The notes under the pieces: model-generated
What the model saw: the letters and a program-made list of their open reading frames with translations, nothing else
Told to the model about the DNA's origin: nothing
Database searches by the model: none
Shown: one piece after another, positions 1,603-49,786 of the stretch
Layout of the letters: each line of letters begins with the position of its first letter
Position numbering within the stretch: position 1 is the stretch's first letter
Made by a program: the position numbers and the translations under genes
IMG/VR virus record: IMGVR_UViG_3300021356_000014
Span: 2,630 to 66,629 of that record
Length of the DNA: 64,000 nucleotides
Origin: a virus
Strand: one strand, 5' to 3'

Positions 1603-2246
1603 TGCACTACACAAACAGATATGGCAGAAAGCAGAGTGGGTTATTTTGGACATTAAGAGAGTTATTAAAGGAGATCATGGTAGGTAAAGCAATTATAAAA
1701 GCATTTAAGCATATATTTAAGGATAAGAAGGCCATATATAAATATCCTGACCGTATTCTAGTTGAGAAGGTTAATAAATATATAAAGGCTAACTGTAAAG
1801 GTGTAAATACTAAGTTAGGGTATACTGAGTTCAGAAGGATAAAAGATAACTATTTCTCTATGACTGCGGAGAGTGAGGAATTTATTGATAACCATTCTTT
1901 TGCTTCTGAGATTATGCAAGTGTACTCAGATGCTTTAGCTGTAAGCCTAGATCATTTATATGATATGCTAGAGAATGAGGAGTTATCTGGTACTTCTTAT
2001 AAGAAGTATGAAACACTGATTGAGAGATTACAGAAGTATATAGATTCTATAGATCGGCCAGATGATACACGCAGTGCTAACAGTATGCCTACCATCAATC
2101 TAAACTTATCTGTTCCTAAAGGATTGCAAATGGTTACTTCGGAATCTCAGATGTTAGAGATAGAGGGTAAAACGCTAGAATCACTGGAAACGCTAGAAAC
2201 GCTAGATTTAGAAACGCCAAACGGTAACGCTAACGCTAATGAATAG
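1602..2246 (+). CDS. hypothetical protein, candidate terminase small subunit
   Basis: Helical 214 aa ORF upstream of TerL; the assignment is positional only. Confidence 0.4.
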   Translation: MHYTNRYGRKQSGLFWTLRELLKEIMVGKAIIKAFKHIFKDKKAIYKYPDRILVEKVNKYIKANCKGVNTKLGYTEFRRIKDNYFSMTAESEEFIDNHSFASEIMQVYSDALAVSLDHLYDMLENEELSGTSYKKYETLIERLQKYIDSIDRPDDTRSANSMPTINLNLSVPKGLQMVTSESQMLEIEGKTLESLETLETLDLETPNGNANANE

Positions 2247-2598
2247 TAACGCTAACGAAACGGTAAATATATATAGAGGTAACGTTACTAACGTTTATGA
2301 TGCAGACAGTATAACGCTAGAATTGCGTTTAGGTTTTGGTATCGTTTTACAGAACTTTAAGTTGCGTTTAGCTAGAATAGATGCTCCTGAGATTAGAGGG
2401 TCTAGCAGAGAGCTAGGTATAATAGGTAGAGATGCTTTAAGAGCCTTAATACTAAATAAAGAGGTAGAGATACTATTTATAAAAAAGGGTAAGTATGGAA
2501 GGCATATTTGCGAGGTTATGGTAGAATATAATAATCAATTTATAAATATTTCTGATTGGTTATTAGATAATAATTTTGCGGATGAATATACATACTAG
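2239..2598 (+). CDS. thermonuclease (SNase-like) family protein
   Basis: VYDADSI, LRLARIDAPEIRG, KGKYGR motifs. Confidence 0.8.
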   Translation: MNSNANETVNIYRGNVTNVYDADSITLELRLGFGIVLQNFKLRLARIDAPEIRGSSRELGIIGRDALRALILNKEVEILFIKKGKYGRHICEVMVEYNNQFINISDWLLDNNFADEYTY

Positions 2599-2986
2599 GA
2601 TGTCGGAGGAGGATTTAAAATGGGTTAGTGCTGAGAGAGGTATCTATATATTTTGGATTGGTATTTATTTCTATATTGGACACTCTACAAATATTAGGAG
2701 GAGATTAAGAAGACATCTCTCTATGATGAAGAACGGTAAACACTATAACAGACAAATACAAAAAGCATGGGATGATGATAGGGATTTTCAGTTTAGTATT
2801 TTACACTATTTTGATTTTGAGGCAAGTAAGGAGTTGCTTTTTCATTGGGAACAAAAGTTCTTAGATTTATTCGCTTCACATATAAACTGCTTGAATGTAA
2901 GCAAGGTAGCTGATTCAATACATTATAAGATTAGAAAACAGAAAAAGGCCAGAAAAGGTATTATTGACCAGAGGGATTTTATATGA
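2576..2986 (+). CDS. GIY-YIG endonuclease (free-standing homing endonuclease-like)
   Basis: RGIY...FYIGHSTNIRRRLRRH, HYN..Q, EQKFLD, LN; adjacent to terL. Confidence 0.85.
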   Translation: MRMNIHTRMSEEDLKWVSAERGIYIFWIGIYFYIGHSTNIRRRLRRHLSMMKNGKHYNRQIQKAWDDDRDFQFSILHYFDFEASKELLFHWEQKFLDLFASHINCLNVSKVADSIHYKIRKQKKARKGIIDQRDFI

Positions 2987-4233
2987 GTACTAAAAAAGAT
3001 ATACCTATAACTACTGAAACATTAGTAGGAGAATTTTCTAAAGTGTTTTGGCAATTAACTGCAAGCAGAGATCAAGGATACCGAGTAACTGTATTACAAG
3101 GGGGTACAAGTAGCGGTAAGACTTATGCAGCTATGCAGTATATATTATTGCAGTGTATTACAAAACCTAATTATTTAGTTACAGTTGTAGCAAGTAGTTA
3201 CCCTATTTTAAGAGTAGGTGCGTTACAGGACGCTCAAACTATTGTTAGTAATAGTATACATATATCAAAGTTTATAAAACAGTTTAATAAATCTACTAAT
3301 ACCTACTTCTTTAACAACGGCTCAAAACTAGAATTTAGGTCATTAGATAGCGGAGAACACGCTAAGGCAGGTAAGCGTTCGCTTTTATTTGTCAATGAGA
3401 TTACTAGCGTACCTGAAGAGATTGTAAATGAGTTATTGATTAGAAGTAATGATGGAGCTATATTTGATTACAATCCTACGGCTCAATTTTATGTACATAC
3501 TAATTTTGTACCAAGAGAGGACACACAATTATTAATTTCTACCTACAGAGATAATCAATTTGTAAGTCAAGCAGTGGTAGAGGAAATTGAAAAACTTAGG
3601 ACTACTAATCCTAATAGGTATCGTGTATATGGGTTAGGGTTAACAGGGGCTACAGATGATGTTATATATAGTAATATAGAATGGGTATTTCCTGAAAAGT
3701 TCCCTGAAGCTTCCTTACTCGATAAATATGCATTTGCGTTAGATTACGGATTCTCAAAAGACCCTACTGCAATTTTAGAATGTGGGATATATAATAATAA
3801 ACTATTTGCTAGACTACACACGTATAGCAAGAATCTAAAATTGCAAGATATTGTAGACGAATTTAAAAGAATTGGTATAAGTAGGAGGGATGAGATAATT
3901 ATGGATTACAGTCATGCTCAGGAGCAGAAAGTTATTCTTGAAAGGCAATATGGATATAATATCATAAAGGCTCGTAGAGGTAGAGGGGATATAGTATCAG
4001 GTATATCACTACTACAAGAACAATCCCTAGTATTATGTGATGACAAAGACAAAAATCTATTAAAAGAAACTAGAAATTATACTTGGAAGAAGAGAGGAGG
4101 CATAGTAACAGATAAACCTGTAGATGATTATAATCACGCCTTAGATGCTTTAAGATACTATGCGTTAGAGAAGCTAGGTAAGCCTTCTTTAGGTAAATAC
4201 AAGTATAATGATAATCCTATATTTACATTTTAA
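2983..4233 (+). CDS. terL: terminase large subunit (PBSX-like)
   Basis: Walker A QGGTSSGKT, Walker B LFVNE, DYNP, STYRDN; nuclease domain LDYGFSKDP and DDYNHALDALRY. Confidence 0.93.
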   Translation: MSTKKDIPITTETLVGEFSKVFWQLTASRDQGYRVTVLQGGTSSGKTYAAMQYILLQCITKPNYLVTVVASSYPILRVGALQDAQTIVSNSIHISKFIKQFNKSTNTYFFNNGSKLEFRSLDSGEHAKAGKRSLLFVNEITSVPEEIVNELLIRSNDGAIFDYNPTAQFYVHTNFVPREDTQLLISTYRDNQFVSQAVVEEIEKLRTTNPNRYRVYGLGLTGATDDVIYSNIEWVFPEKFPEASLLDKYAFALDYGFSKDPTAILECGIYNNKLFARLHTYSKNLKLQDIVDEFKRIGISRRDEIIMDYSHAQEQKVILERQYGYNIIKARRGRGDIVSGISLLQEQSLVLCDDKDKNLLKETRNYTWKKRGGIVTDKPVDDYNHALDALRYYALEKLGKPSLGKYKYNDNPIFTF

Positions 4234-4253
4234 AAAATTATTTTATAATAATT

Positions 4254-6561: not shown

Positions 6562-6571
6562 ATTATTTATT

Positions 6572-7438: not shown

Positions 7439-7454
7439 GGTAAATTTATATATA

Positions 7455-10400: not shown

Positions 10401-12080
10401 GTTATCATATTAGAGGCAGCCTTAGCTAACTTTGCTAATTCTACGGCAACTGTAAGATATGCTAAAGAGTTAGAAGTTGTTAACGCTAAGTTAGCTCAAT
10501 CTATTAAAGATGGAGATAAGTATAATGAGTTTCTTAGAGAGCAAGCACAACTTACGCAAGACCTAAATAGACTTAGACAAGAGGAGGGCAGGTCTTTAGA
10601 GGCTCAAACTCCTGATGGAAGAGCCGAAAAGGAAGCAGAAATTATAAGAAAGTTAGCTGCATTAGAGAGGGAACAGTTTAGGATTACTACTAGAACTATT
10701 GAATCGGAGAGAGATAAGATTGCCCGCAATAGGCAGCAAGAGGTTATAGATTTAGCGGATTTAGAGATACAAAGAATAAAAGATAATCTTGCAGAGGAGA
10801 TAAGATTAGGTAATGAAGCAAATATTAAGGCGTTAAATAATGAGTTGGCAATAGCAACGGAGTTATTACAAATAGAGCAAATTAAGTTAGATATAATAGA
10901 GGAGGAGCAGCTTATAAGAAATCAAGTTGTAGGTATTCAAAATTCCTTACTTATTGGTGAGATAGGCAGAAATAACAAACTTCTTGACCGTATCGACTTG
11001 ATTAAGCAAGAGGGAGGCAGCCTAACTAGCCAAGAAACAAAAATAAATAAATTAAGAGATGAGTTCGCATTTAAGGCGAAGCGTAGAGAAATAAGAGATG
11101 ATATAGATATACTTGAGCAGAAGTTAAAGAATAGCCAACTAGAAGCTACTGAAGAGCTTACACTAAAAAAAGAGTTATCAGAAAAGGAATTAGAACTACA
11201 AGATTTAGTTTTTGAGCGTAGAAAGACAAAACAAGAGGAGGCAAGACAAGAACAATTAGAGATACTAAATACGTTAAGCGATAATTTGCAGTCTTCCTTC
11301 ACTAACTTAGATTCTGTATTTCAATCACTTTCTGAGAATAGACTAAAAAGGATTCAAAGAGAGGCAGACCTTCAAATTTTACTTGCAGGTAATAATAATG
11401 AGAAAATACAAAAGATTGAAGCAGCTAGAGAGAAAAAGCTAAGAGAGGAGCGTAAAAAGACATTTGAGCAGTCTAAGAAGTTGCAACTTGCTGCTCTAGC
11501 TATACAGACGGCTAGTGGTATTGTGAATATCTTATCAGCACCTACTACTATCCCAATACCTTTTGATGCTATTGTCAAAGCAGCACAAATTGCAGCATTA
11601 GTAACTCAAAGTGCCGCATCTGCCGCCTCAATCAGTAGCCAGACATTCGCAGAAGGGGGTTACACAGGTAGCAGTACAAATAAGAAAGATAAAACAGGCA
11701 GAAGACCAGCAGGAATTGTACATAATGATGAATGGGTAGCCAATACGGAAGTACTTAGACATCCTGAAGGCGCACAACTAATAGCCAAAGCAGAAATGTT
11801 AAGACGTAGAATAAAAGGAGGATCAACATTCACAAAAAATAAAGGGTACTTCGCAGAAGGTGGATTTACAGGAGCAAGCTTTGTGCCTACATTGCCCACA
11901 TTTGCAAGTAATAGCGCACCAAGTGTAGCAGGCTTTACAGACGAGCAAATTGAGGTGCTTGCAGAAACACTATCTGTAGCAGTTGCTCAAGGGTCAAGAC
12001 AAGGTCTAGTAGAAGGGAGACAAGATGAAAACAGACTCTCTGAACGATTAAATTCATTAAACAATACAATAAATAGATAA
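7455..12080 (+). CDS. tape measure protein (TP901-like core)
   Basis: LGATTQFTASDVA..LARLGF core, central hydrophobic segments, long coiled coil, C-terminal FAEGGYTG..AGIVH..EWV; ATG 7455 preferred over the track's TTG 7416, which lies in the hairpin. Confidence 0.92.
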   Translation: MANEIKLRINIETNQRFGVLAENFDKLSKSLRLIGKTTGTTAQKFKDIEAALNRYVLSSKNTISSAGALQAANTLLTKSLEQQKQEALKSSDAYTKLSASLRNTKQEINENVKAQQLQLNINRKADGSIDKLKLQLRKLREEYSKLSTSQREGLEGLNIRDQAKQIGGELTAANTLLNKSIEEQKQEVLKSSDAYTKLSASLRNTKQEINENVKAQQLQLNINRKADGSIDKLKLQLRQLREEYSKLSTSQREGLEGFDIRFKAKQIGEDIKKANDEFTEATKGFDDNSKKSVGAFQRLGLGSLGAIAAFEGLRRSIVRVGETLGEFERNISILGAVTGEFEDGLPTQKLTDLETTIKDLGATTQFTASDVASLATELARLGFNTEQIDATLGNVLNLALIAGESTSRAAEVLGSTINAFGLEFTEATRVVDLLAKAFSSSALDLTKFDVAVGTVGAVAKQAGIEIEEVAAVMGVLSNAGFDASIAATAFRNILIRSAEAGKDYRQALSEVSDATNSTLKAFELFGVRGAPQATVIADAFDSGEINKLAADFRKAQEDAFSTEAVGFIEQDFQSAINEFKSALEGLTITIGEVLSPVMTDLLSLTTSVLQGFRGFYTTIGEGLGIIESTSDEVKEFNAAVKISTVLIGIFSTSLLFTTGRAIFPFVSSLAASVISLFSMQGALVATSGALGVFRFALASTGIGALVIAVGFLIAALIEAGIALAQGKKNVNIFGKALRDVGNVLRVIFLFVEGVFRTIGAVFLVLTGQVRRAEKSMENFGKKVRDVTNDIKGLKEEAKIEITFDDKLLISKLAESQIKAEIAKLDEQIEPLKIKARFDPINQTEAKSQLEALDKQRKLFQEELARREAARSKQIADEAFSRTLAGLKEEQKKLREELEQTDPLSAAFETTLARLRRVEREIKKINDRIANTTKTALEIFTSNLKENKKALDNLIFSGGNYDNILKKVTESQTRYNQFQADSKVIILEAALANFANSTATVRYAKELEVVNAKLAQSIKDGDKYNEFLREQAQLTQDLNRLRQEEGRSLEAQTPDGRAEKEAEIIRKLAALEREQFRITTRTIESERDKIARNRQQEVIDLADLEIQRIKDNLAEEIRLGNEANIKALNNELAIATELLQIEQIKLDIIEEEQLIRNQVVGIQNSLLIGEIGRNNKLLDRIDLIKQEGGSLTSQETKINKLRDEFAFKAKRREIRDDIDILEQKLKNSQLEATEELTLKKELSEKELELQDLVFERRKTKQEEARQEQLEILNTLSDNLQSSFTNLDSVFQSLSENRLKRIQREADLQILLAGNNNEKIQKIEAAREKKLREERKKTFEQSKKLQLAALAIQTASGIVNILSAPTTIPIPFDAIVKAAQIAALVTQSAASAASISSQTFAEGGYTGSSTNKKDKTGRRPAGIVHNDEWVANTEVLRHPEGAQLIAKAEMLRRRIKGGSTFTKNKGYFAEGGFTGASFVPTLPTFASNSAPSVAGFTDEQIEVLAETLSVAVAQGSRQGLVEGRQDENRLSERLNSLNNTINR
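7665..8260 (+). repeat. 303-bp (101 aa) tandem duplication in the tape measure N-terminus
   Basis: GAGTAGTGATGC at 7721 and 8024; AANTLL...KQIG present twice. Confidence 0.95.
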
Positions 12081-13345
12081 TGCTCGCACAAATAAATAGT
12101 ACGCCAAATTATATATCAACTATTGACGAATTTGTTTTTGAAGTTGAACTTACAGGCAGCCCTACATCTGGAATTACTGAACGCTTATTTTATCAACTAA
12201 CAGATGCAGGCGGAAACGCTTTAACGCAACGCTACGCTATAGACGATATAAACGGTACTTTAACGTTGCGTTTAGGAACGCTAGTTTTACCGTTTATTGA
12301 AACGCTACTTCCCGTTTATACAAACGCTATATTAGATAGCGTTTCTGAGGGCTATGGCAAAGATGTGCGACTAATCGTGGGCAGACAAATAATTGATGAG
12401 GCAACTTGTAGTATTACTTATACAAGTGATGACTCTAGTAATACTATGTATGTAGTGAATGCATATAATTCAATAAATACTTTTGAGGATTTGTTTAGCA
12501 CCTCTACAAGTATAACAAGTGCTAAGTCTGTGATATTAACAAGCAGACCAAATACCACAACGGTAAATGTTAATACGCCAGATTTTATTCAAGTTTATAA
12601 TCCTATTGATGGTACTGCCAACACTTTAAATTATGAAGTTAAGTATTATAATTCTGAGTGCCAATTAATGAATATATTGAGTGGTACGGTTAATAAAAAT
12701 AGCACTCGTATTACAAATTTATTTTATTATACTGGCAGCAGTAATACTTTATTTTTATTGCCTGCATATAATCCATCCAATCCGACTCAAGAATATAATG
12801 GTATTGATACTGTTAATCTTGAAAATCAAGATATAGCAAAAATAGAAATTATATTTACTGGTAAAGTATCTAAAACTTATACGGTAAAGATATTAGGTTG
12901 TGATATGAAAGAGGTAGCCTACAAATCTGCAATTTACAGTTTAGATAGGTTAGGCGGATATAATTCATTACCATTCGATATTTTATATAGCTTATCAAGA
13001 AAGACAGGAACTATTCGCAGCTTTGTCGATATATCAGATAAAGGATATGGGAAATTAAGAACAGGCTTCTCGTCCTCGAATAATCAGTCATTCAGGTCTT
13101 TCAATGCCGTACATAAAATGCGTAGAAACAATTTAGAAATAATTGATTTTACGGAACAATTTTTCAATTCAAATAGTTTTTATATATATGTAGATAATAA
13201 TATAGCTACCCCAGTAGGTGCAGCTATAAATTATAAGTTTAATAAAGCTATACTAGAAAATGGAAATATAAAAATCAGCCAAGATGCGGGAGTATTAGAA
13301 GTTAAATTTAAAGGTAGAATGGGCAGTAATTTAAAAGCACAATAA
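12080..13345 (+). CDS. tail/baseplate protein (distal-tail position)
   Basis: Directly follows the tape measure gene; LDRLGGYNS motif; positional inference. Confidence 0.6.
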   Translation: MLAQINSTPNYISTIDEFVFEVELTGSPTSGITERLFYQLTDAGGNALTQRYAIDDINGTLTLRLGTLVLPFIETLLPVYTNAILDSVSEGYGKDVRLIVGRQIIDEATCSITYTSDDSSNTMYVVNAYNSINTFEDLFSTSTSITSAKSVILTSRPNTTTVNVNTPDFIQVYNPIDGTANTLNYEVKYYNSECQLMNILSGTVNKNSTRITNLFYYTGSSNTLFLLPAYNPSNPTQEYNGIDTVNLENQDIAKIEIIFTGKVSKTYTVKILGCDMKEVAYKSAIYSLDRLGGYNSLPFDILYSLSRKTGTIRSFVDISDKGYGKLRTGFSSSNNQSFRSFNAVHKMRRNNLEIIDFTEQFFNSNSFYIYVDNNIATPVGAAINYKFNKAILENGNIKISQDAGVLEVKFKGRMGSNLKAQ

Positions 13346-26188: not shown

Positions 26189-26201
26189 AAATAAAAATAC
26201 A

Positions 26202-30815: not shown

Positions 30816-30826
30816 AAAATAAAACA

Positions 30827-33547: not shown

Positions 33548-33561
33548 AATAAACAGCAGAT

Positions 33562-33833: not shown

Positions 33834-33847
33834 TTAAATTATTGACA

Positions 33848-34852: not shown

Positions 34853-34857
34853 CAGAA

Positions 34858-36453
34858 ATGGCTATAAAGATTGTAAGAAATGAGGCAGGTAATTGTGTGA
34901 CCTTTCAAGGGTCAAGTAATCCTGTTTATTGGAACTCCTGTTTATCAGGTGAAGTAGACCCTTCAAACCCACAATTAATAAATATAAAAAATGATATAAG
35001 AAGTATTAATGAACAAAATACTATTTATGAGTTTTATAATATACCTTACACAGAATTTACTGACTCAGAGGGTAATAGTTTTGCAACACCTCAAGAGTGT
35101 GCGACTTATATAACTAATGAATGTAATGTATTAGGGAATACAGGACAACAAGTAGCATCCGATACAGATACTTTTGATTTTTATTTAGATCAAAAGGATA
35201 ATACTGTAATAATGAATACAGGTGATTACTTTCCTGTAAACACTATACAAGCAGTATTAGAATCATCTACTTTAAGCATAACATCTATAGTAGGTTCTAA
35301 AATTTACTATTCAAATATAAATTTAAGCAATGTTTCAATATTAGGTACAGAAATTACTGGAACTGATACAGAAAAGATAAACTCGCTAAACGCTCTATTT
35401 CAAAACACTGGAACATCAACAAGTAATATCCCTGCTATAACGAGTTCGTTGGCCATCTCTTTGACGCAGGGAGAAACATTGAATTATGAATTGATAGCTA
35501 ACTTCGGAGTAGGCTATGAGTGGGATTTATCAAACGTTAGTGGTGTTACGACAGTAGAGGGGAATATACGTAAGTTAATAGGCGGTTCTTCATTAGCAGT
35601 TGGTACTTATAACATACCAGTTAAAGCGATCAATTATAATGGTCAGGATAGCCAAACTATTGTACTTACAGTTTCTACACCTCCTTTTTCTAATACTAAA
35701 AGTGTTAATTTATCAAACCAAGATTGGTTAGGTGCTAATGCAGCTTTATTAGATAGCACTTTAGGTAGGACAAATAATGGTAGCGGCTCAGGAGATGCAT
35801 GGACTATAGCTTTTTATTTCAAAGGAAGTAGCGACACAAGTAACGGACAGACTATTTTTTACTTTGGCGATAATGACACAAATAATGGAGGTCATATGTA
35901 TATACGTTATCAAGGAGGTAACAACCGTTTTCGATTTAGGTATGGATCGGATAACAACCACTTAAATTTTCATTCGCCAGACAACTCAATATTAGATAAC
36001 ATTTGGTATCATATTATGATTGCATATGATGGAGGAACAACTGGTGCGAGTAGTGGAGATATTAACAGCTATTACAGTAGATTCAGTATATTTATTGACG
36101 GAGTTGACGTTACATCAAATGGTAGCTGGTCGGAAAGTAATTATGGTTGGTCTAGTGGTATAGATGCTGACAATATAAGAGTTGGTAGATATGGGTCATC
36201 ACAATATATGCAAGGAGGTTGCAAGATAGACGAACTAGCAATTTGGGACAGCGATCAAAGCGCAAATGTTTCAGACATTTACAATAGCGGTGTTCCTTTT
36301 GATTTATCTACATTGACAACACAGCCAAAACATTGGTGGCGTATGGGGGATGGCGATACGTATCCCTATCTACAAGACAACGGAACAGAAGCAAATTGCA
36401 TATTTCAAATGTACAATATGACATCAGCAGATATTGTTAGTGATGTACCTTAA
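34858..36453 (+). CDS. Ig-like plus LamG/concanavalin A-like domain protein
   Basis: PAITSSL..GTYNIPVKAIN Ig-like segment; WTIAF, WYHIMIAYDG, IFIDG, IDELAIWD, HWWRMGD LamG motifs. Confidence 0.75.
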   Translation: MAIKIVRNEAGNCVTFQGSSNPVYWNSCLSGEVDPSNPQLINIKNDIRSINEQNTIYEFYNIPYTEFTDSEGNSFATPQECATYITNECNVLGNTGQQVASDTDTFDFYLDQKDNTVIMNTGDYFPVNTIQAVLESSTLSITSIVGSKIYYSNINLSNVSILGTEITGTDTEKINSLNALFQNTGTSTSNIPAITSSLAISLTQGETLNYELIANFGVGYEWDLSNVSGVTTVEGNIRKLIGGSSLAVGTYNIPVKAINYNGQDSQTIVLTVSTPPFSNTKSVNLSNQDWLGANAALLDSTLGRTNNGSGSGDAWTIAFYFKGSSDTSNGQTIFYFGDNDTNNGGHMYIRYQGGNNRFRFRYGSDNNHLNFHSPDNSILDNIWYHIMIAYDGGTTGASSGDINSYYSRFSIFIDGVDVTSNGSWSESNYGWSSGIDADNIRVGRYGSSQYMQGGCKIDELAIWDSDQSANVSDIYNSGVPFDLSTLTTQPKHWWRMGDGDTYPYLQDNGTEANCIFQMYNMTSADIVSDVP

Positions 36454-36461
36454 ATATTTAG

Positions 36462-36525
36462 ATGATAAATATAACAAACTATACGCATTCTTATAATACA
36501 AGGGCGTATAGTTTTTGTATTTTTG
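36462..36525 (+). promoter_or_regulatory. putative late promoter of the holin/protease unit
   Basis: ATGATAAATATAACAA 36462-36477, hairpin 36476-36513, TATTTTTG at 36518. Confidence 0.6.
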
Positions 36526-38486: not shown

Positions 38487-39290
38487 TTAATCAGCTTTAT
38501 GCGTATCATCCGTAAAAGAAAAAAGCCCACGCTCTTTTGCCTTTTCAAGGCAATTTGGGTTAATATCACAACCAATAAAGTTTCGCTTCAAATCTTTGCA
38601 TACTTCTGCTGTTGTAAAGCTACCACTATAAAAATCTGCTACTAAATCACCTTCATTGCTACTTGCTTTTATTATTCGTTCAATTAATTTTATCGGCTTA
38701 TTTGTTGCATAAGCGATTCTGCCATATCTTGTAGAAAAGTTGTCTAGTATAAAACAGTCTGTATAATATCCAAGAGTATACTCTCCAATATTATCAAATT
38801 CATATTTCAAATTTGGGTCATATCCTCTACTTTTATCAATATATACTTTATTTTCTCTTGGGTTTTCAAAGTTATAGTTATTTGTTTTTGTGTAAAATAA
38901 AATACAATCGTGCTTTTTACTAAATTCTTTTCTACTAGCACCTCCTGTTTTGTATCCCCAAACTATCTCATTCCTAAAGTTTTTATACCCAAAAACATCA
39001 TCCATAATACACCTTATCCAATGGTTTATTCGCGTATCCATCTGCAAATAAATACTGCCTGTTGGCTTTAGTATTCGGTACATTTCTTTAATGCGAGGTA
39101 TGTAATGCTCTTCAATTATATCACGTTTAGGTTTTAAGTCTTGGTAGTCTTTAAACTTTCTACCAGTACCATAAAGTATATCACAATAAATTAAATCTAC
39201 TGTATTGTCTTGCATTTCTGCCATTAATTCAAGGTTGTCACAAATTCTCATATCTAAAAATTGCCCTCCCTCTTTTTCTTTTACTATCAT
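38487..39290 (-). CDS. DNA methyltransferase, N4C/N6A beta class
   Basis: DLIYCDILY (motif IV variant), RILKPTGSIY, FRNEIVW, KPIKLIERII, VADFYSGS (motif I). Confidence 0.88.
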   Translation of the reverse strand: MIVKEKEGGQFLDMRICDNLELMAEMQDNTVDLIYCDILYGTGRKFKDYQDLKPKRDIIEEHYIPRIKEMYRILKPTGSIYLQMDTRINHWIRCIMDDVFGYKNFRNEIVWGYKTGGASRKEFSKKHDCILFYTKTNNYNFENPRENKVYIDKSRGYDPNLKYEFDNIGEYTLGYYTDCFILDNFSTRYGRIAYATNKPIKLIERIIKASSNEGDLVADFYSGSFTTAEVCKDLKRNFIGCDINPNCLEKAKERGLFSFTDDTHKAD

Positions 39291-39381: not shown

Positions 39382-39912
39382 TTAGCTGTAATATTGGCTT
39401 AGGTCAATGCTATTTTCAGCTTCGTTACCCCAAGTATGCCAACCCTGCTTCTCCTCTCTACAAAACATTTCCAGTCTGGCAGCACTTGGATACCACTCTT
39501 TTATTAAGTTTCGTATAAAGTCAGGCTTTTTACTGTGCTTGCCTCGTTTCTCTTCCATTACACTACTTATTCTCATTGTGCTTGGCGGTGGGCTAAACTT
39601 ACCTTTTTTAGCAACCATAAGTAGTTCGTGCTGCCCTCTAAACCAATACCCCATACCAATCATCTTTTTATCCCAAATACCGTGTGTTACATACTTAAAC
39701 CCCCATGCTTCTATTACCTTCATTGCTTCGGGTAGTTTTGGAGCAGTAGCCCACATATACAACACAGCATTTTCGTTTGTCATATTCTTTACAGGCAAGT
39801 TGCAAATATCATCAATAGTCATTGTGGGGTATTGGTTTTCCACGTCTCTGCTTTTACTTTTACTAAAGTCATATCGCCACGCAGGGTCGGCATAAATTAC
39901 ATCATATTTCAT
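39382..39912 (-). CDS. MT-A70 family adenine methyltransferase
   Basis: VIYADPAW, YPTM, LYMWAT, AWGFKY, GMGYWFRGQHE, HSKKP, LEMFCR. Confidence 0.9.
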   Translation of the reverse strand: MKYDVIYADPAWRYDFSKSKSRDVENQYPTMTIDDICNLPVKNMTNENAVLYMWATAPKLPEAMKVIEAWGFKYVTHGIWDKKMIGMGYWFRGQHELLMVAKKGKFSPPPSTMRISSVMEEKRGKHSKKPDFIRNLIKEWYPSAARLEMFCREEKQGWHTWGNEAENSIDLSQYYS

Positions 39913-42337: not shown

Positions 42338-43702
42338 ATGCACAAAGAATTTGAAAGAGATATTGTACGATATCTTGTACAAGAGAATCAAGGTATTGAG
42401 TATATAAAGCAGATCGACTCCGATTATTTTAACCATGAGGAGAATAAGTTTGCTTTTACCTACATGAAGCAGTATGTAGAGCAAAATAAATTTATACCTC
42501 CTAGAAACTCCTTCTACCGATTTGTTTATGAGGAGCTATCCTTGACCGAAGAGAATACAAAAATAGATGAGATTATAAAGGATATTTATAAGCCTTATGA
42601 ATCGGTTAGGGCTGAGTTATTTTTAACAGTAAAAGAGTATTTACAGAAGCAATCAATAATCAAGTTATTAGCTTCTATTGAAGATTTATCCTCTTTGACC
42701 GATCAAGAATATTCCAAGATTGCAAACAACCTATCTGCTATTGCGAAACTAGATTCTAATGAGAATTTATATCCTGCCGACAAGTTTGTTCGTAAGGATT
42801 TTACATCTTTAATGCCTTCTTATGAATTGAGTGTACCTTCTTTTTTAGATGGTTTAAATAGTTTAAGAACTACTGGCGGTTTTCAAAGTCCTGAGTTATC
42901 AGTAATTGTATCAGGAGCAAAAGGCTTTAAGACTGGTATGCTTCTTAATCTAGCGGTAGATTATATGTTGAAGGGTATGAATATAATTTATATAGATTGT
43001 GAGAATGGTGTAGATCAGATTAATGCCCGCATAAAGCAGATTATTGCAGGCAATTGCACCCATAAGGAGTTATATGATAAGGAGATACAAGAGAATTTGC
43101 GTAAGCGTATGCAGTTTTTAGATAGTAATTTCTTGACTGAAACTGGGGATATTGCTATCTGTTATGTCCCTAGTGGTAGTCATTTTGATGTAGTAGAAGC
43201 TAAGATTGAGGAAAAGATTAGGGATGGATTTAGGCCAGACATATTAATTTATGATTACATTGATAAGTTTACATCAGGCTCTCATAAGGGGCATGAAGAC
43301 AGTCAGAAGAATTATGATCGTGCGATTGTATTGAATAATAAGTTTAATACATTTAGTTTTACGGTATCTCAGACTAATCGTGATGGGTTAGAAGCTACTA
43401 CCTTAACTGCTGCAAATTTAGCGAAGGATTTTCAGAAGGTATCTAATGCTCATGCTGTATTTGCATTAAATCGTAATCGCTTTGAGTTAGATAATGGGCT
43501 TGCGCATTTAACTCCGCTTGCACAGCGGGCAGGTGAGAGATATATTCAAGGAAAGAATGAGGTATTTTTAAGGATAGATGAGTCTATACAGTTAGTAGAG
43601 GAGATTACTGACCCTGTGGAGAAGATAAGATTATATGAGGAAATATTTGATACTGTTGTAGAGCATGATATTGATTTATCAGATAATATTGATATAATAT
43701 GA
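42338..43702 (+). CDS. DnaB-like replicative helicase
   Basis: Walker A SGAKGFKT, YIDCEN, IYDYID, TVSQTNR. Confidence 0.85.
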   Translation: MHKEFERDIVRYLVQENQGIEYIKQIDSDYFNHEENKFAFTYMKQYVEQNKFIPPRNSFYRFVYEELSLTEENTKIDEIIKDIYKPYESVRAELFLTVKEYLQKQSIIKLLASIEDLSSLTDQEYSKIANNLSAIAKLDSNENLYPADKFVRKDFTSLMPSYELSVPSFLDGLNSLRTTGGFQSPELSVIVSGAKGFKTGMLLNLAVDYMLKGMNIIYIDCENGVDQINARIKQIIAGNCTHKELYDKEIQENLRKRMQFLDSNFLTETGDIAICYVPSGSHFDVVEAKIEEKIRDGFRPDILIYDYIDKFTSGSHKGHEDSQKNYDRAIVLNNKFNTFSFTVSQTNRDGLEATTLTAANLAKDFQKVSNAHAVFALNRNRFELDNGLAHLTPLAQRAGERYIQGKNEVFLRIDESIQLVEEITDPVEKIRLYEEIFDTVVEHDIDLSDNIDII

Positions 43703-44682
43703 CAACAAAGATATTTAATTTTCTTCAAGATAAGTTACAATTTCAATCGACGTGTACTGATTGGTACAGATTTAAGCATATAGAGTCTAAATCTTATTCT
43801 AAGAATTGTGCGTACAATCCTTCTATTGATACTGTTATAAACTTCTCTACAAAGTATAATTTTAAGTCTATGTCAGGCTTTAAGTATGCTATGCGTTATA
43901 TCACAAAGCAAGATTATAATAGTACAAAAGCTATAATTGCTAGATATGATGGTGTAGATTTTGATAGGGATAGAGCAGCTTTATATCGTTTAAATACTGC
44001 TAGTTATAAAGATAATTACGTAGGCAAGACTACAAGATACTTAAATAGTGTTTCTGAGAGTATTTTATCTAATTCAGATATTGCTATAGCTGCAAGGAAA
44101 TATCTTGAATCTAGGGGAATTAGTGATTATCAAGCTGATTTTTATGGGTTACGTGTGGGTATCAAGGATAAGTATCTTAACAGAGTTATTATACCTTTTT
44201 TTGAGGATAAAAAGATAGTCTATTTTAATGCTAGAGATTTTACTGGTACTAGTCGATTAAAGTATGTAAATCCTACTGAGGATGAAGCAGATTATAGTGC
44301 TAGAAGTTGTATTTATAATATAGACTGTTTAAATACTTATGATACTATCTATGTGGTTGAGGGAGCCTTTGATGCTATGATGGTAGGCAGTGATTGTATA
44401 GCTTTAGGTAGTTATACATTAAAGAGAGAGCAACTAGATAAGTTAATAAATACTTCAAAAAAACATTACATTTTTATTCCTGATTTTGAAGGTTATGAGC
44501 AATTTAAGAAGCAAGCTAAAAAATTGTGTGTATTTCATAAAGTATCAATGTTAGATACTAGAAATCTTGGGGAAGGTGACCCTTGCTTGTGGGGTAGAGA
44601 TAAGGTTTTATCTTGCCCGCAATTGTCTGCATTAGCTATCGAAAAAAAAGTTAAACAACAACAAAAATACTCATTTTTATGA
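43699..44682 (+). CDS. DNA primase (Toprim)
   Basis: YLESRGI, RVIIPF, YFNAR, KYVNP, VVEGAFDAM, PD, GDP. Confidence 0.85.
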   Translation: MTTKIFNFLQDKLQFQSTCTDWYRFKHIESKSYSKNCAYNPSIDTVINFSTKYNFKSMSGFKYAMRYITKQDYNSTKAIIARYDGVDFDRDRAALYRLNTASYKDNYVGKTTRYLNSVSESILSNSDIAIAARKYLESRGISDYQADFYGLRVGIKDKYLNRVIIPFFEDKKIVYFNARDFTGTSRLKYVNPTEDEADYSARSCIYNIDCLNTYDTIYVVEGAFDAMMVGSDCIALGSYTLKREQLDKLINTSKKHYIFIPDFEGYEQFKKQAKKLCVFHKVSMLDTRNLGEGDPCLWGRDKVLSCPQLSALAIEKKVKQQQKYSFL

Positions 44683-45413
44683 TTAGTATACAAGAAAGAG
44701 ATTTGAGGCTTTTATTAGTAAATAGAGGTTTCACAAAAAATGCTGCTGACAATCTTATAAAAGCGATAAAGAGGTCAGTAGATTCTAAGGTAACAAATGA
44801 GAGGTCAGATATTGAGAAGAGATATGGGATTAGTGCGGATACTATGGTTATCCATATGCTTTGGGAAAGATATTGTAAGTATATTAATATTGACCCTAAA
44901 TCAAGGTTAAGAGGTGACAGCCTTAGTTTAGTGAGGGATGCCTGCATTTGCTTGCAATATATTTGTATAGAATTAGGGATGGACTTAGATTTACAAACTA
45001 TAGACAGATTCTTAAAGTATGCACATTATATTAGTGAGAAGTCTGGCTATACTAGATTATCATTGAGAGCCTTATCTTATAATGTAGATAAGGTATTAGA
45101 ATTATTTAATAAAGCGAATATAGTAAAGGAATCTGGGGATTTCCCTTTGATACGTAGAATGCAGAGAAAATATGCAAGCTACTTAAAAATAAATATTGTG
45201 TCGGAGCTTGACAATGTAGAAAATATTTATTATTTTTATCAGGCCTTACAAAACATAAAAAGGCATACTTCCTATGATGAGAAGAGCAGCGAAAAAATTG
45301 TTGACCTGTTCATTCATAATAATATGTCTTACTGGAAGGATAAGGGGATAATACCTACTGCAAAGAATTTAGCTGATATAAAAGCATTATCATCACTAAG
45401 CAAATTAAAATAA
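44679..45413 (+). CDS. hypothetical protein
   Basis: 244 aa ORF with ATGA overlap. Confidence 0.65.
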   Translation: MISIQERDLRLLLVNRGFTKNAADNLIKAIKRSVDSKVTNERSDIEKRYGISADTMVIHMLWERYCKYINIDPKSRLRGDSLSLVRDACICLQYICIELGMDLDLQTIDRFLKYAHYISEKSGYTRLSLRALSYNVDKVLELFNKANIVKESGDFPLIRRMQRKYASYLKINIVSELDNVENIYYFYQALQNIKRHTSYDEKSSEKIVDLFIHNNMSYWKDKGIIPTAKNLADIKALSSLSKLK

Positions 45414-45752
45414 ATGATACAAAAGAAAATTAAGAGATACCAGTTTGATATTCTTCAAGAGAATATACATACCGATAATGATGCGCCTGTTGGGGCTAGT
45501 ATGAAGCAGATATATAGTCAAAAGCTAGAAAATTATCTGCATAGTAATGGTATGAGTATCGAAAATTTAAGGCAAGACTACTCGAAAGAGCGTATGTCAG
45601 ATCGTATGAGAGGAAGATTATTGACAGCTTATACTCAAGCAGTTCATATATATTCTCCAGTTGGAAGAGATGTGTTAGCAGAAGAAATAGGAAAGACTGA
45701 AAGCGAATTAAATTCCTTATTGAAGTCATTAAGAAACAGAAAAGTACAATGA
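45414..45752 (+). CDS. hypothetical protein with possible C-terminal HTH
   Basis: RDVLAEEIGKTESELNSLLK. Confidence 0.55.
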   Translation: MIQKKIKRYQFDILQENIHTDNDAPVGASMKQIYSQKLENYLHSNGMSIENLRQDYSKERMSDRMRGRLLTAYTQAVHIYSPVGRDVLAEEIGKTESELNSLLKSLRNRKVQ

Positions 45753-47140
45753 AAATAAAGATAGATAATATACAAGGCATATGTGATTATACACATCCTA
45801 AATTTAAGTCTTTGAGAGAAGAATATAAGGTAGCTAATCCTGATTATTGGAGAGCAATAAGGATGTCATCTTATGCTCAGAAGTATTATTACTTTATAAC
45901 TCAAAAAGGTAAGTTTAGTTTAGGGCATTTGCCCGCAATTGTGCGCTTATGCGATCAACTAAACATCTCTATTGAGATTGATGATACTAGATTGCATAAG
46001 ACTATATTTAAACCTTTCAGTAATCAGTTAGGTGAGTACACATTATATGAGCATCAATATAAAGCATTAGAGCGTTCTAGTAATACCCTGACTATTTCTG
46101 GTCAAGATATTCCATATAATCGAGGTATATATAAGATGGCTACTAATAGCGGTAAATCCTTTATTATTGCAAGCAAATGCGTGCATCTAAATGAAGGGCA
46201 TAAAGCTGTAATATTTGTACATACAGTAGACCTACTAAACCAGTTCTTTAAAACACTAAAGAATTTCGGATTAAATGTGGGCGCATTCGGGGGCAAACAT
46301 AAAAAGACTTCTGTATTTCTTGAGTGTGATGTAATCATATCTACCTACAAGTCTTATCTATCTTATCACACAAAATCTAAAGAGGTAAAAGCATTCACAA
46401 ATTCAGTAGATTTACTGATTGTAGATGAATGCCACAGAGCATCAGCAAAAGATTATGCTAGAACTATTAAACTTTTTAAAAATTCAACAAATGTTTATGG
46501 CTTTAGCGGGACTCCCTTCAAGAATGTGATATTAGCAGATAAAACGGTTCAAGGATTATTCGGAGATATCCTCATGGAGGTAAGTAATGAGGATATGCAA
46601 AAGATAGGTGTATCCTTAACTCCTATCGTAAAGATGTATGAAGTAGAATGCGATTATTTTTATTCTTATCAAGAATCTTATGAGCAGAATATCGTATTTT
46701 CTCAAGCTAGAGTAGATAAGATGGCTGAATATATTAAGCATAATACAAATAGGCAAATTATAATACCTGTTAAGCGTTTAGATCATGGTAAGTTTATATA
46801 CAATGCTCTACATAAAATTTGTGATTGTAGATTTGTGTCAGCTAACCATAAATTTAGAGATTATTTATTTGAGCAGTATAGTAAAAAGGAGTACCAAGTT
46901 TTGATTACTACGCTTGGTCAAGAAGGATTAAACTTACCTATTGACACCTTAATTTATGCTAGAGCAGAAGAGTCGATTGTAAGCCTTCTTCAATATATAG
47001 GCAGAATATTAAGGCTAGAGGGCAATACTAAAAATATTGAGATTGTAGATTTCTATGATAAAGACAATAATAACCTAGAGAAGCATAGCAAGAAAAGACT
47101 TGAAATATATAAAAAAGAAAAATTTAAAACTAATATATAA
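45749..47140 (+). CDS. superfamily 2 helicase (UvsW-like)
   Basis: ATNSGKS, DECH, SGT, EGLNLP, QYIGRILR. Confidence 0.9.
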   Translation: MKIKIDNIQGICDYTHPKFKSLREEYKVANPDYWRAIRMSSYAQKYYYFITQKGKFSLGHLPAIVRLCDQLNISIEIDDTRLHKTIFKPFSNQLGEYTLYEHQYKALERSSNTLTISGQDIPYNRGIYKMATNSGKSFIIASKCVHLNEGHKAVIFVHTVDLLNQFFKTLKNFGLNVGAFGGKHKKTSVFLECDVIISTYKSYLSYHTKSKEVKAFTNSVDLLIVDECHRASAKDYARTIKLFKNSTNVYGFSGTPFKNVILADKTVQGLFGDILMEVSNEDMQKIGVSLTPIVKMYEVECDYFYSYQESYEQNIVFSQARVDKMAEYIKHNTNRQIIIPVKRLDHGKFIYNALHKICDCRFVSANHKFRDYLFEQYSKKEYQVLITTLGQEGLNLPIDTLIYARAEESIVSLLQYIGRILRLEGNTKNIEIVDFYDKDNNNLEKHSKKRLEIYKKEKFKTNI

Positions 47141-47159
47141 AAAATAAAAACTTAATAAA

Positions 47160-47366
47160 ATGGAAAGATTACCTGAGGAAGAAGTAGTTGTTAAAATCAG
47201 CGTTTGTAATAAATGCAATGGTATTGTAAGAACTGCTGTAAAACATATGATGGACAGAAAAAGTAATAACGATTTTGCAAAGGAGGTAATGGAATATAAC
47301 CTAAATGTGATAGAACTACCTTTGCTTGAATACCGAAATCAAAACGCTGATTGGTGCAAATGTTAG
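47160..47366 (+). CDS. small Cys-containing hypothetical protein
   Basis: 68 aa, CNKC..WCKC. Confidence 0.6.
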   Translation: MERLPEEEVVVKISVCNKCNGIVRTAVKHMMDRKSNNDFAKEVMEYNLNVIELPLLEYRNQNADWCKC

Positions 47367-47427
47367 TAGGTTTATTACCTAGAACGTTTAGTATAGCCGA
47401 TGTGGTTTAAACGATAAATTTAAAAAT

Positions 47428-47664
47428 ATGAATACAGATACTAAAAGCTATGACGGCGATACATTGTTAGGCGCATGTGCCTTAGATGATAAAATATTAG
47501 CTGAAGCGTTTGTTTTATTATTTGACCCGACTTGGAAGCGTAATTGGACAAATAAAGATAAGGCAAAAGAAATGCGCTCAATTATAAACGGACAAACGCA
47601 AGTATGTAGACCTTTTTTTAATTACGCAGAATGTATAGATTACCTAAGTAGGTATTGCGCCTAA
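47428..47664 (+). CDS. small cassette protein
   Basis: Starts in the hairpin loop; stop TAA lies in the CCTAAC end box. Confidence 0.6.
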   Translation: MNTDTKSYDGDTLLGACALDDKILAEAFVLLFDPTWKRNWTNKDKAKEMRSIINGQTQVCRPFFNYAECIDYLSRYCA

Positions 47665-47684
47665 CAAGGTATATCAGAAATATT

Positions 47685-47764
47685 GAAGATATTTTTTAGG
47701 ATTTGCTCGCAATTGCAAGCAAATATTTTTAACTTGCCTTGATTATATAATTAAAAACTAAAAA
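47685..47764 (+). promoter_or_regulatory. repeated promoter/operator element, copy 1
   Basis: ATATTTTTTAGGA-TTTGCTCGCAATTGCAAGCAAA-TATTTTTAACTTGC. Confidence 0.7.
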
Positions 47765-47977
47765 ATGGGATACAAAATTAAAAACGCAGAATTATCTGAT
47801 TTCTTTGAGGTGATGGATAGCCTTGAAAAACTACTAACAGATAGGATAAGTGATTTACATCAGGTAAAAGGAGGTATGCAAGCAAGACACGCATATATAC
47901 TTTACAGGAAATTACTATGGGAAGCTAAGGATATAATGAGAGATAACATCGAAGAAATTAAAACGGAAAGTAAGTAG
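47765..47977 (+). CDS. hypothetical protein
   Basis: 70 aa ORF directly after the promoter element. Confidence 0.6.
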   Translation: MGYKIKNAELSDFFEVMDSLEKLLTDRISDLHQVKGGMQARHAYILYRKLLWEAKDIMRDNIEEIKTESK

Positions 47978-48067
47978 AAAGAAAATAAATTATGAACTGG
48001 CAAGTAGTTTTAAAAAGACCCGTAACACGGCTATTTGCTATATTTTGTGTTATAGGGCGTTATTATT

Positions 48068-48295
48068 ATGAACTTATAATATGTACAAAACGGAAGAGGC
48101 TTAAAATTTATCAAAAAAGGAATGAAGTGTAAAAATACCTACTTAGGTAAGGTTGGGATAGTAAAAGGTGGAAATAGTAGTGGTAACATTGATGTATTAT
48201 TTGAAGGGGAAAAGAAAGCAGAAAATTGCCACCCAACTTGGGCGATGAAGTATTTTGATGAAAACGATAATGTTATTGCAGAGTATGGGCAGTAA
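48068..48295 (+). pseudogene. cassette gene with an in-frame TAA at codon 4 (or a 57-aa product from ATG 48122)
   Basis: ATG AAC TTA TAA TAT GTA..GGA ATG AAG TGT..NCHPTW..TAA, all in one frame. Confidence 0.5.
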
Positions 48296-48327
48296 ATGCC
48301 CTATAACAAGGTATATCAGACATATGA

Positions 48328-48409
48328 AAAATATTTTTTAGGATTTGCTTGCAATTGCGGGCAAATCTTTTTAACTTGCAATCATTAACTAATTAAAATA
48401 AAAAAAAAT
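48328..48409 (+). promoter_or_regulatory. repeated promoter/operator element, copy 2
   Basis: TTTGCTTGCAATTGCGGGCAAA 48344-48365; TTGCAA-N17-TAACTT. Confidence 0.7.
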
Positions 48410-48601
48410 ATGCTACGTTTAGTTGTTTTAGTAATTTATTGTAAGTTGCAAGCATTTGCTTGCGGGAGTATTGAATCTCCTGATACGTGTATGGAGATGG
48501 TATATGATACAACTAGATATGTAGTATCAATAGATTCATTCAAGTATAATACCTATATGGAGGAAGGGGTTTGTTTTATTCAAGTTGACACTTTAAAATA
48601 A
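48410..48601 (+). CDS. hypothetical small protein with hydrophobic N-terminus
   Basis: 63 aa ORF after the promoter element. Confidence 0.5.
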   Translation: MLRLVVLVIYCKLQAFACGSIESPDTCMEMVYDTTRYVVSIDSFKYNTYMEEGVCFIQVDTLK

Positions 48602-48607
48602 AAAGAT

Positions 48608-49786
48608 ATGAAACAGGAAAAAATATTAAAGGGGATTGCTTTCATTGAGATGGCTGTAGAAATATTAAAGCCACAATCATTGGAGCAAAAATGTAAAAAA
48701 GTATATACTAGAAACACCTATATTTCTTATGTGTTTCAATTCTTATCCATTTTAACTGGCTTGAGTTTTATAGCTTATGTAGGTAAGGAAATTAATGGAG
48801 TATTGTTTATCATATCTTCTTTAGTTTTATTCATTTTGCTTGCTATGATTGAGGCAGGTAAAAGGATACTAATAAAAGATATATCTAAACTTTATTTTTC
48901 TGAAAATGAAATAAAGTATATATCTTTATTTTTGTTGGTTGTTATATTAGCTGCTTCTGCTAGTATTAGTTACGTAGGAGGAAGTAAAATACCTTCTGTG
49001 ATTGTGTCAAGCCAGTCTATTGATTCAACTCAAGTAGCTGAGGTTATTCCTTCTATTCAACTAGACTATACTAGAACTCAACTAGATTCAATAGCTAAGT
49101 CAATCAGAAAGCAAGAAGCTACTACTTACAAAGGAAGGGTAACTAGGACGGCTAATAGAAACTTAAAAATACTATATGACCAACAATCACAATATCAAAG
49201 TACTCTTTTACAGTTAGAAAAGGAGCATCAAAAAAAGGTAGATGCTAGGAATCAGGCTTTATCTGCTATAAAAGAAACTAGAGATTTAAAGATACAGGGT
49301 GTCGGATTTATCTTTGGAGGAGTAGCTGTTTTTAGTGATATTATGTTAGTGTTTCTTTTATACTTTGCGTATAATTCCTTGAGCAAAGTTTATAAAAAAC
49401 ATCAAACTAGTACAATATTAGATGCGTATAATGTAACGTTAGAAGAAACGCTAGTTTTAGCTAAAGTGCCTGAAATCAATAAGTTACCTGAGCCTAAAGT
49501 AACGTTACAAGAAACGCAAGAGGAAAAAGTAACGTTACAAGAAACGCAAGAGGAAAAAGTAACGTTACAAGAAACGCAAGAGGAAAAAGTAGCGTTACAA
49601 GAAACGCAAGAGAAGCCTAGAAAAAACGTAAAGCTGCCTAAAACTAAAAAGGTTGAAGTAGTAAACAAAGAACCTAAACACAGACGTTGCGACAACTGTG
49701 GGGCATCGTATGCCTATAAAAGACCAAGTTCTAGGTTTTGTAGTTCAAAATGCAGATTAGAAAATCATAACCAAAAAAGAAAATAA
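48608..49786 (+). CDS. multi-TM coiled-coil protein with 10-aa repeats and C-terminal Zn finger
   Basis: About 4 hydrophobic segments, VTLQETQEEK x4, CDNC..FCSSKC. Confidence 0.7.
   Translation: MKQEKILKGIAFIEMAVEILKPQSLEQKCKKVYTRNTYISYVFQFLSILTGLSFIAYVGKEINGVLFIISSLVLFILLAMIEAGKRILIKDISKLYFSENEIKYISLFLLVVILAASASISYVGGSKIPSVIVSSQSIDSTQVAEVIPSIQLDYTRTQLDSIAKSIRKQEATTYKGRVTRTANRNLKILYDQQSQYQSTLLQLEKEHQKKVDARNQALSAIKETRDLKIQGVGFIFGGVAVFSDIMLVFLLYFAYNSLSKVYKKHQTSTILDAYNVTLEETLVLAKVPEINKLPEPKVTLQETQEEKVTLQETQEEKVTLQETQEEKVALQETQEKPRKNVKLPKTKKVEVVNKEPKHRRCDNCGASYAYKRPSSRFCSSKCRLENHNQKRK
49497..49612 (+). repeat. about 4 x 30-bp tandem repeat
   Basis: AAAGTAACGTTACAAGAAACGCAAGAGGAA unit. Confidence 0.9.

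Follow-up and report, generated by a model that had tools for sequence, protein, structure and literature searches.

What would lead a virus to write the same short DNA word many times over into a handful of unrelated genes? The question is raised by a 64.0-kb stretch of DNA, here called the window, which comprises bases 2630-66629 of G000, a single 66,629-bp virus contig (IMG/VR record IMGVR_UViG_3300021356_000014), and in which the tetramer AACG/CGTT is gathered into five islands. We find that selection acts on the DNA of these islands. Very probably they are arrays at which a single sequence-specific protein binds the DNA cooperatively, and we suggest tentatively, at a probability of roughly 30%, that the arrays may serve as several landing sites for the phage replication machinery, either for origin binding or for replisome loading.

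Five islands of one short motif

The window is 33.4% G+C and depleted in CG dinucleotides (observed/expected 0.66), in line with a first-pass annotation of this DNA, which had called CG scarce and had drawn attention to five clusters of AACG/CGTT. All five were recovered, each 90-250 bp long with 10-18 sites, and there are exactly five in the window:

2171-2372, island 1: 18 AACG/CGTT sites, 14 on the plus strand followed by 4 on the minus strand
12179-12345, island 2: 14 sites of mixed orientation, in the tail gene 12080-13345
18908-18993, island 3: 10 sites, nearly all on the plus strand, in the C-terminal part of the protease/scaffold gene 17866-19137
33645-33833, island 4: 15 sites, nearly all on the minus strand, in the 294-bp non-coding gap 33548-33841
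49435-49690, island 5: 16 sites, in the linker of the open reading frame (ORF) 48608-49786

The hand counts given earlier (16, 13, 9, 15 and 12) are reproduced when distinct CG positions are counted and palindromes are taken once, the island peptides quoted with them are correct, the motif does occur in different frames and on both strands across the islands, and the spacing put at 7-16 kb corresponds to measured gaps of 6.7-15.8 kb. Four islands overlap coding genes, island 4 being the sole non-coding one. Together they total 1,050 bp, or 1.6% of the window, and hold 74 of its 291 AACG/CGTT and 47 of its 103 AACGC/GCGTT; elsewhere the frequency of the motif is roughly that expected from base composition. 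No 5-mer in the window is more clustered than AACGC/GCGTT, with 15 copies per 200 bp (Poisson scan p ~7e-18). A position weight matrix built from the island sites gave 87 strong sites over the whole 66.6-kb contig, of which 62 fall in the five islands, and it found no sixth cluster.

The core of the motif is AACGY, with AGAAACGCTA as the best site and the 10-bp GTAACGTTAC as its palindromic form, and the 74 aligned sites give a consensus that is longer than the core and degenerate, (A)GAAACGCTA: AACG is followed by C in 47 sites and by T in 19, then by T in 50 and A in 21, and then by A in 63 of the 74. All 10 copies of AGAAACGC lie in islands (1.07 expected from shuffles), as do 12 of the 14 copies of AAACGCTA (1.93 expected). 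Islands 1-3 and 5 carry mainly AACGC on the plus (coding) strand and island 4 carries mainly GCGTT; islands 1 and 2 mix orientations, and one orientation predominates in each island. Neighboring sites are 5-58 bp apart, frequently 5, 6, 9, 11-13 or 22 bp, with a slight excess at 11-13, 22 and 33-34 bp, and helical phasing is weak. The boxes keep no fixed register, their distances being irregular, unlike contiguous heptads or regularly spaced tetramers. Tandem duplication has made a local contribution in islands 1, 3, 4 and 5, parts of which were resolved by Tandem Repeats Finder into units of 9, 14-21, 11 and 30 bp; the same program found no tandem repeat in island 2. No second common sequence element lies beside the islands. 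An origin as a diversity-generating retroelement or CRISPR-like system was rejected, as no similarity of the islands was seen apart from the short motif and no reverse transcriptase was found.

The islands differ widely in their surroundings. Island 1 covers the last 25 codons of an orphan ORF (1602-2246) and the first 45 codons of an SNase-like ORF (2239-2598), and lies ~600 bp upstream of the large terminase gene. Island 2 falls within a folded region (aa 33-88) of the tail gene, which directly follows the tape-measure gene, and island 3 is followed 200 bp downstream by the start of the capsid gene (19191). To the left of island 4 (33574-33633) are four copies of a second, TATGCTTGC-like repeat at one mismatch or fewer, and inside the island is a stretch of 22 bp that is entirely A/T (33790-33815), a patch that no other island has. 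The most regular array is island 5, with four tandem 30-bp units at 49496-49612, each made of the palindrome GTAACGTTAC plus AGAAACGCAAG; the copy number of this unit differs among 5 homologues, and the island stops ~100 bp before the start of PolA.

Selection acts on the DNA of the islands

When the protein sequence was held fixed and codons were redrawn from genome-wide usage (2000 resamples), the coding islands, with 7-16 AACG/CGTT each, stood far above the resampled means of 1.4-2.2, and their 4-9 AACGC/GCGTT compared with means of 0.3-0.8 and a resample maximum of 2-4. The rare threonine codon ACG makes up 25 of the 35 threonine codons in islands versus 123 of 1207 genome-wide. With a cluster defined as at least nine sites per 200 bp, shuffling synonymous codons within genes across the whole genome (n=200) gave a mean of 1.4 clusters, in which the untouched non-coding island is included, and a maximum of 3, versus 5 observed. 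Synonymous-codon shuffling therefore fails to reproduce the enrichment, 0 of 200 whole-genome shuffles reaching five clusters.

A close relative, G001 (an IMG/VR contig of 69,723 bp, 88.1% identical in nucleotides over 48.9 kb), keeps all five islands at homologous positions. In this comparison, which rests on one close relative, the motif bases of islands are 93.4% identical versus 86.2% for non-motif island bases (269/288 vs 513/595, Fisher p=0.0015), motif 5-mers outside islands are 83.0% identical, and the islands as wholes are conserved no better than their flanks. Individual sites turn over: there are 74 in G000 versus 69 in G001, of which 60 are common, 14 are found in G000 only and 9 in G001 only, and in island 1 there are 15 common sites, 3 lost and 3 gained. 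G001 additionally carries a strong island of 10 sites at 35944-36047, in an accessory lipoprotein-like ORF, plus one weak island, giving six to seven arrays in G001 and five in G000. The tail-fibre region 25384-33543 (8 kb) is unaligned to G001 except for a 333-bp stretch (30565-30897), and the alignment restarts at the left border of island 4, which thus marks a mosaic junction.

Four distant relatives, G002-G005, were found via the capsid protein (39-52% identity). G002 is 71.2 kb long, with repeated contig ends and a largely syntenic gene order; in its counterpart of the tail gene that carries island 2, the alignment (27% identity) continues across the island, yet no such cluster is present. 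The codon resampling, the use of ACG for threonine, the conservation of motif bases in G001 and the turnover of sites at held counts establish that selection acts on the DNA of the islands; the first-pass annotation had proposed as much, and its proposal is borne out by both the synonymous resampling and the G002 homologue.

No 4- to 6-mer is comparably clustered in G002-G005 (best p 1e-5 to 2e-9). Since four distant relatives of the same gene order are without such arrays, the arrays are, as far as these genomes can tell, a recent gain in one lineage. Also specific to this lineage, compared with G002-G005, are ORF 48608, ORF 1602, the SNase-like gene and all three methyltransferase genes, among others.

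Wider searches returned few relatives. The 7.5 kb around island 4 had no match by blastn among 50,697 GenBank phages, the best tblastn match of PolA among GenBank phages was 27.5% identical, a scan of metagenome contigs gave no relative beyond G001, and a PolA scan of IMG/VR gave G001 and two remote loci. Among 80 loci with a large terminase subunit (TerL) of at most 38% identity, which were compared for clustering, none of the 25 most clustered exceeded 4 AACGC/GCGTT per 200 bp (best 5-mer p ~8e-8). The sequence itself is present in seawater, marine and estuary metagenome runs (24 runs found, all as contigs), and intermediate relatives are present in public assemblies, among them capsid proteins at 52-58% identity and homologues of ORF 48608. 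In four further runs, marine or estuary, relatives are represented by Logan contigs that stop at 33654-33744 and 49521-49557, within islands 4 and 5; on the practical side, such arrays thus break short-read assemblies.

A scan of IMG/VR for three AACGCTA within short gaps matched at least 118 loci, G001 among them; among the matches listed, 49 had a cluster of at least six copies, nearly all of them regular tandem repeats in one orientation. Two of the loci, L102 (3050-3320) and L093 (1-300), belong to a phage of 42% GC and consist of non-coding TAACGC direct repeats, an A/T-rich stretch and GCGTTA inverted repeats. This array directly follows a 523-aa ORF, primase/helicase-like by eye alone, a few genes before the terminase, and the region is probably a single origin that uses a similar word. 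BLASTP found no protein common to L093 or L102 and G000. A full-text literature search returned no described equivalent of such dispersed arrays.

Possible landing sites for replication and competing readings

The genes against which the function of the arrays has to be weighed are the following:

1602-2246, plus strand: orphan ORF of 214 aa, ending in island 1
2983-4233, plus strand: large terminase subunit of the PBSX/Terminase_3 type (family search)
38487-39290 (minus strand), 39382-39912 (minus strand) and 58005-58505 (plus strand): three DNA methyltransferase genes (N6_N4_Mtase, MT-A70, Dam-type)
42338-56855, plus strand: replication/recombination module (family searches)
48608-49786, plus strand: ORF of 392 aa whose stop overlaps the start of PolA

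The replication/recombination module encodes a DnaB-like helicase, a DnaG-like primase, an SF2 helicase, PolA, an SSB-like protein, an Mre11-like phosphoesterase and a Rad50/SbcC-like ATPase, together with ORF 48608, small ORFs and two ORFs (244 aa and 112 aa) without an assigned family. The protein that would bind the arrays is probably phage-encoded and lineage-specific. Its sites would have been placed in tolerant or recodable parts of genes, and we propose that they were written into genes because the genome has little non-coding space. As landing sites for replication, the arrays would allow a T4-like replication/recombination apparatus to start at several places on the 67-kb chromosome, with the non-coding island 4 and the tandem-iteron island 5 as the main sites and islands 1-3 as auxiliary ones.

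Several observations argue for this proposal. The arrays are built of short degenerate boxes in both orientations, 5-23 bp apart and 10-18 per array; island 5 has its tandem palindromic units in the linker of a replication-module gene, just before PolA; island 4 lies in a complex non-coding region with a second repeat type and an A/T patch; genes for Mre11/Rad50-like proteins, an SF2 helicase, a DnaB-like helicase and a primase are present; and the unrelated phage of L102 and L093 has its TAACGC array beside an ORF that is primase/helicase-like by eye. In addition, the islands are spaced more evenly than random points. On the circle, the gaps are 10.0, 6.7, 14.8, 15.8 and 19.3 kb in G000 and 18.5, 14.4, 10.5, 9.8, 6.7 and 10.0 kb in G001, where the extra island sits in what would be the largest gap, and the probability of a coefficient of variation (cv) at or below that observed is 0.026 and 0.011, respectively; each test presupposes that the genome is complete and circular, and they are not independent of each other.

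Other observations weigh against landing sites. The spacing test assumes full circles, yet CheckV puts G001 at 50% complete. When the flanks of each island out to 100 bp were scanned in 30-bp windows for their highest A/T fraction and compared with random places, the probability of random values at or above those observed was 1.0, 0.90, 0.96, 0.27 and 0.77 for islands 1-5, so that no clear unwinding element stands beside four of the five, although the test is weak in a genome of 67% A+T. GC skew tracks gene orientation alone and marks no origin, three of the islands are in structural genes distant from the replication module, and a scan of 60 ORFs revealed no initiator or other binder. In classical iterons the units are longer and stand at regular intervals, and to our knowledge several phage origins sharing one iteron are rare. 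Finally, two regular non-coding tandem arrays of other sequence, at 21046-21136 and 60974-61116, are equally good candidates for an origin.

Among the proteins that might bind the arrays, the product of ORF 48608 is a speculative candidate for a binder or an anchor. Its layout, as read from the sequence, comprises four hydrophobic segments, the repeat linker, a Lys-rich stretch and a C-terminal Cys4 zinc ribbon of treble-clef-like form, which matches DUF2116 at E=0.0011, under the family cut-off; the ribbon is below the cut-off of every family. Just three close homologues were returned in a homology search, and the ORF is confined to this lineage. ORF 1602 occupies the position of a small terminase and may be one, an identity that is putative: it matched no terminase or other family, phmmer against 1.84 billion proteins returned 4 at E<=0.001 (one 93% identical, three matching part of the query), and a language-model search (Atlas) gave weak terminase/HTH leads. 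ORF 45414 was modelled by AlphaFold2 (AF2) as a helical fold (pLDDT 70.7) with no match in the PDB at E<=0.001, and the model of ORF 44679 was unusable (pLDDT 44.9). The Pfam/PHROG scan of the 60 ORFs found no integrase, repressor, ParA, ParB or ribbon-helix-helix (RHH) protein, and none of the small ORFs listed in the gaps is RHH-like by eye.

It is possible, if doubtful, that the islands are instead genome-wide loading or anchoring stations, one every 7-19 kb, at which a lineage-specific protein docks and then spreads, bridges, tethers or coats the chromosome, for example to keep the replicating genome membrane-bound or to label it as self for the nucleases that the phage itself makes. Their even spacing, with the extra island of G001 in the largest gap, would then cover the whole genome, akin to RHH centromeres or dispersed parS/KorB sites, and their architecture is like that of the RHH centromere arrays TP228 parH and pSM19035 parS. 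A variant would possibly place the tether in the membrane, through the zinc-ribbon membrane protein of ORF 48608, whose own gene carries island 5; it is lineage-specific, as are the islands, and its zinc ribbon and Lys-rich tail are predicted to face the cytoplasm. The tie to ORF 48608 is, however, one of co-occurrence in a single lineage, the 60 ORFs scanned gave no ParA, ParB or RHH family match, and the box spacing is irregular, unlike contiguous heptads. Moreover, with no integrase or repressor found, nothing needs partition.

Unlikely, and somewhat more so, is a role as operator or activator arrays of a global phage transcription regulator, similar to omega of pSM19035, with one array per transcription unit. 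Four of the five islands do end 0-350 bp upstream of a gene start (SNase at 2239, capsid at 19191, 33842 and PolA at 49786), one motif at many loci is the usual pattern of a regulator, and one island per transcription unit would also yield even spacing. Island 2, however, occupies positions 100-265 bp into its gene, with the next start 1 kb further on, 10-18 sites are far above the usual number in an operator, and no regulator was found among the ORFs scanned. In promoter scans, the region around island 4 (32500-35000) has 9 sigma-70-type sites versus a shuffle mean of 10.4, and of 15 paired TAnnTTTG matches none falls within ~200 bp of an island.

We consider it improbable that the islands are pac arrays for a small terminase (TerS) ring, with island 1 as a classical pac at the end of terS and the others starting packaging on branched concatemers. 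Island 1 closes the ORF preceding the terminase gene cluster, the PBSX/Terminase_3 type to which TerL belongs is associated with headful packaging, the relative G002 has repeated contig ends, P1 pac consists of seven hexamers inside pacA, and an array has about as many sites as a TerS ring has subunits. Against this, ORF 1602 is an orphan without a terminase family match and with weak language-model leads, G000 and G001 have five to seven arrays per genome versus the one recognition site expected, and we know of no phage with five to six pac sites. Between the large terminase gene and the putative small one lie an SNase-like gene and a GIY-YIG nuclease gene (2239-2986).

We give little credence to the islands as host or enzymatic targets, that is, as Chi-like clusters against RecBCD/AddAB, as decoys that titrate a DNA-binding or defence protein of the host, or as targets of the phage methyltransferases. 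In length the 5-mer core roughly matches the shortest Chi known to us (AGCGG of B. subtilis), one orientation prevails per island, and three lineage-specific methyltransferase genes are present; but islands contain sites of either orientation, the prevailing one in island 4 is opposite to that elsewhere, and we know of no precedent for clustered Chi or decoy arrays in genes. Least likely is a functionless by-product of replication slippage and duplication of short local units, which would suit the tandem parts of islands 1, 3, 4 and 5 and the copy numbers that differ among relatives, but is insufficient because one word recurs at five loci that are unlinked, in varying frames and on either strand, tandem repeats are missing from island 2, conservation favors motif bases, rare codons are recruited, and neither G002-G005 nor the best 25 of the 80 TerL loci are comparably clustered.

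The remaining content of the genome is that of a phage with structural genes that include a 1554-aa tape-measure protein, a protease/scaffold fusion and tail-fibre genes. Searches for Rfam families and tRNA genes returned nothing. A motif like Shine-Dalgarno (SD) precedes just 2 of 50 genes, and the sequence upstream of start codons is A-rich, both of which are usual in Bacteroidota and in the phages that infect them. A marine member of the Bacteroidota is the probable host, given the few SD-like motifs and the marine metagenome runs, among other features of the window.

Further repeats and insertions were observed. The array at 21046-21136 consists of 9.3 copies of the 10-bp unit ATGCTTGCGT in the non-coding gap between genes 20445-21029 and 21181-22605; it belongs to the second repeat family (ATGCTTGCGT, TATGCTTGC-like), which has 43 matches at one mismatch or fewer versus 19.7 expected. 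The array at 60974-61116 has 9.5 copies of the 15-bp unit GAAAACTCGATTATG in the non-coding gap after the thymidylate synthase gene and is missing there in G001, where a similar repeat (35738-36502) is read in frame as EKLES/EKLEF of the lipoprotein-like ORF that carries the extra island. Several homing-endonuclease-like genes are present. The thymidylate synthase ORF (59587-60975, 462 aa) contains an in-frame HNH endonuclease-like segment at about aa 118-263, which could be an intein or an inserted homing-endonuclease domain, and an HNH/endonuclease-like gene in the structural module (16562-17542) has an internal repeat of 204 bp in 2.6 copies. A 90-aa ORF at 7-279 is extreme in its content of Lys, Arg and Gly and matched no PHROG family.

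Comparison with known systems

Replication origins of phages offer a close likeness to the landing sites that we tentatively favor. The origin of lambda lies inside gene O, oriL and oriR of SPP1 are bound by G38P, P4 has ori plus crr, and several T4 origins lie in genes; the origin-binding proteins of SPP1 and of P4 each act at two or more clusters that lie far apart. With these iteron-type origins the islands share clusters of repeated sites, some of them over coding sequence, and with lambda in particular the position of island 5 in the linker of a replication-module gene. As in such origins, the sites stand in arrays, with 10-18 per island and four regular 30-bp units in island 5. They are unlike iteron origins in numbering five to six clusters rather than one or two, in their very short, degenerate and irregularly spaced core, in the lack of a recognised initiator, and, by a test that is weak at this A+T content, in having no clear A/T-rich unwinding element beside four of the five islands.

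A second likeness is to the centromere arrays bound by RHH proteins. Plasmid pSM19035 carries several parS arrays per replicon. These consist of 7-bp heptads in mixed orientation and double as operators and centromeres (PMC9499535), and parH of TP228 is ~100 bp long and built of degenerate tetramer boxes open to rearrangement (PMC3130281). The islands resemble RHH arrays in their many short, degenerate boxes, direct and inverted, over ~100-200 bp, and in an arrangement that tolerates rearrangement. They are unlike them in that no RHH protein or ParA ATPase was found here, in that their spacing is irregular rather than contiguous, and in their position within structural genes of a phage in which no lysogeny genes were found.

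The hexamers of P1 pac are regulated by methylation, and there is one such site per genome. Like P1 pac, island 1 has a short motif irregularly repeated on either side of a center in the gene that precedes a terminase function, and like P1 this phage encodes methyltransferases; unlike P1, it has five to six sites rather than one, and the small-terminase identity of ORF 1602 is putative. Dispersed sites for one protein are known from the four centromeres of N15, the twelve KorB operators of RK2, the stoperators of mycobacteriophage L5 and the c1 operators of P1. The likeness lies in one protein acting at many loci over a genome of 45-95 kb, some of them in genes; the difference is that those are single sites of 13-17 bp in plasmids or temperate phages, whereas here 10-18 short boxes stand together. 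Compared with ParB-parS and KorB-OB, the sole palindrome here, GTAACGTTAC, is 10 bp long rather than 13-16 bp, and no ParB family match was obtained. Chi-like hotspots have a single orientation relative to the DNA end or replication direction and are over-represented in the host genome; orientation here is mixed within islands and inverted in island 4. A plain tandem or protein repeat does not account for all copies of the motif, which occur in several frames and on both strands, with no tandem repeat in island 2.

If the arrays are indeed several origins or loading stations, a compact virus would overlay a chromosome-scale cis-acting code on its protein code, offering a tractable case of dual-coding constraint in which array-free relatives are natural controls. 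If they serve in loading or anchoring, a centromere-like array system would have been reused inside structural genes of a phage without recognisable lysogeny genes. Protein-binding repeat arrays are already familiar as single origins, pac sites or centromeres. Here a single short motif has come to stand in five to six arrays, fairly evenly spaced, along a phage chromosome of 67 kb. Most copies lie in structural and replication genes that are unrelated, where rare codons were recruited to spell them, in what appears to be one recent lineage.

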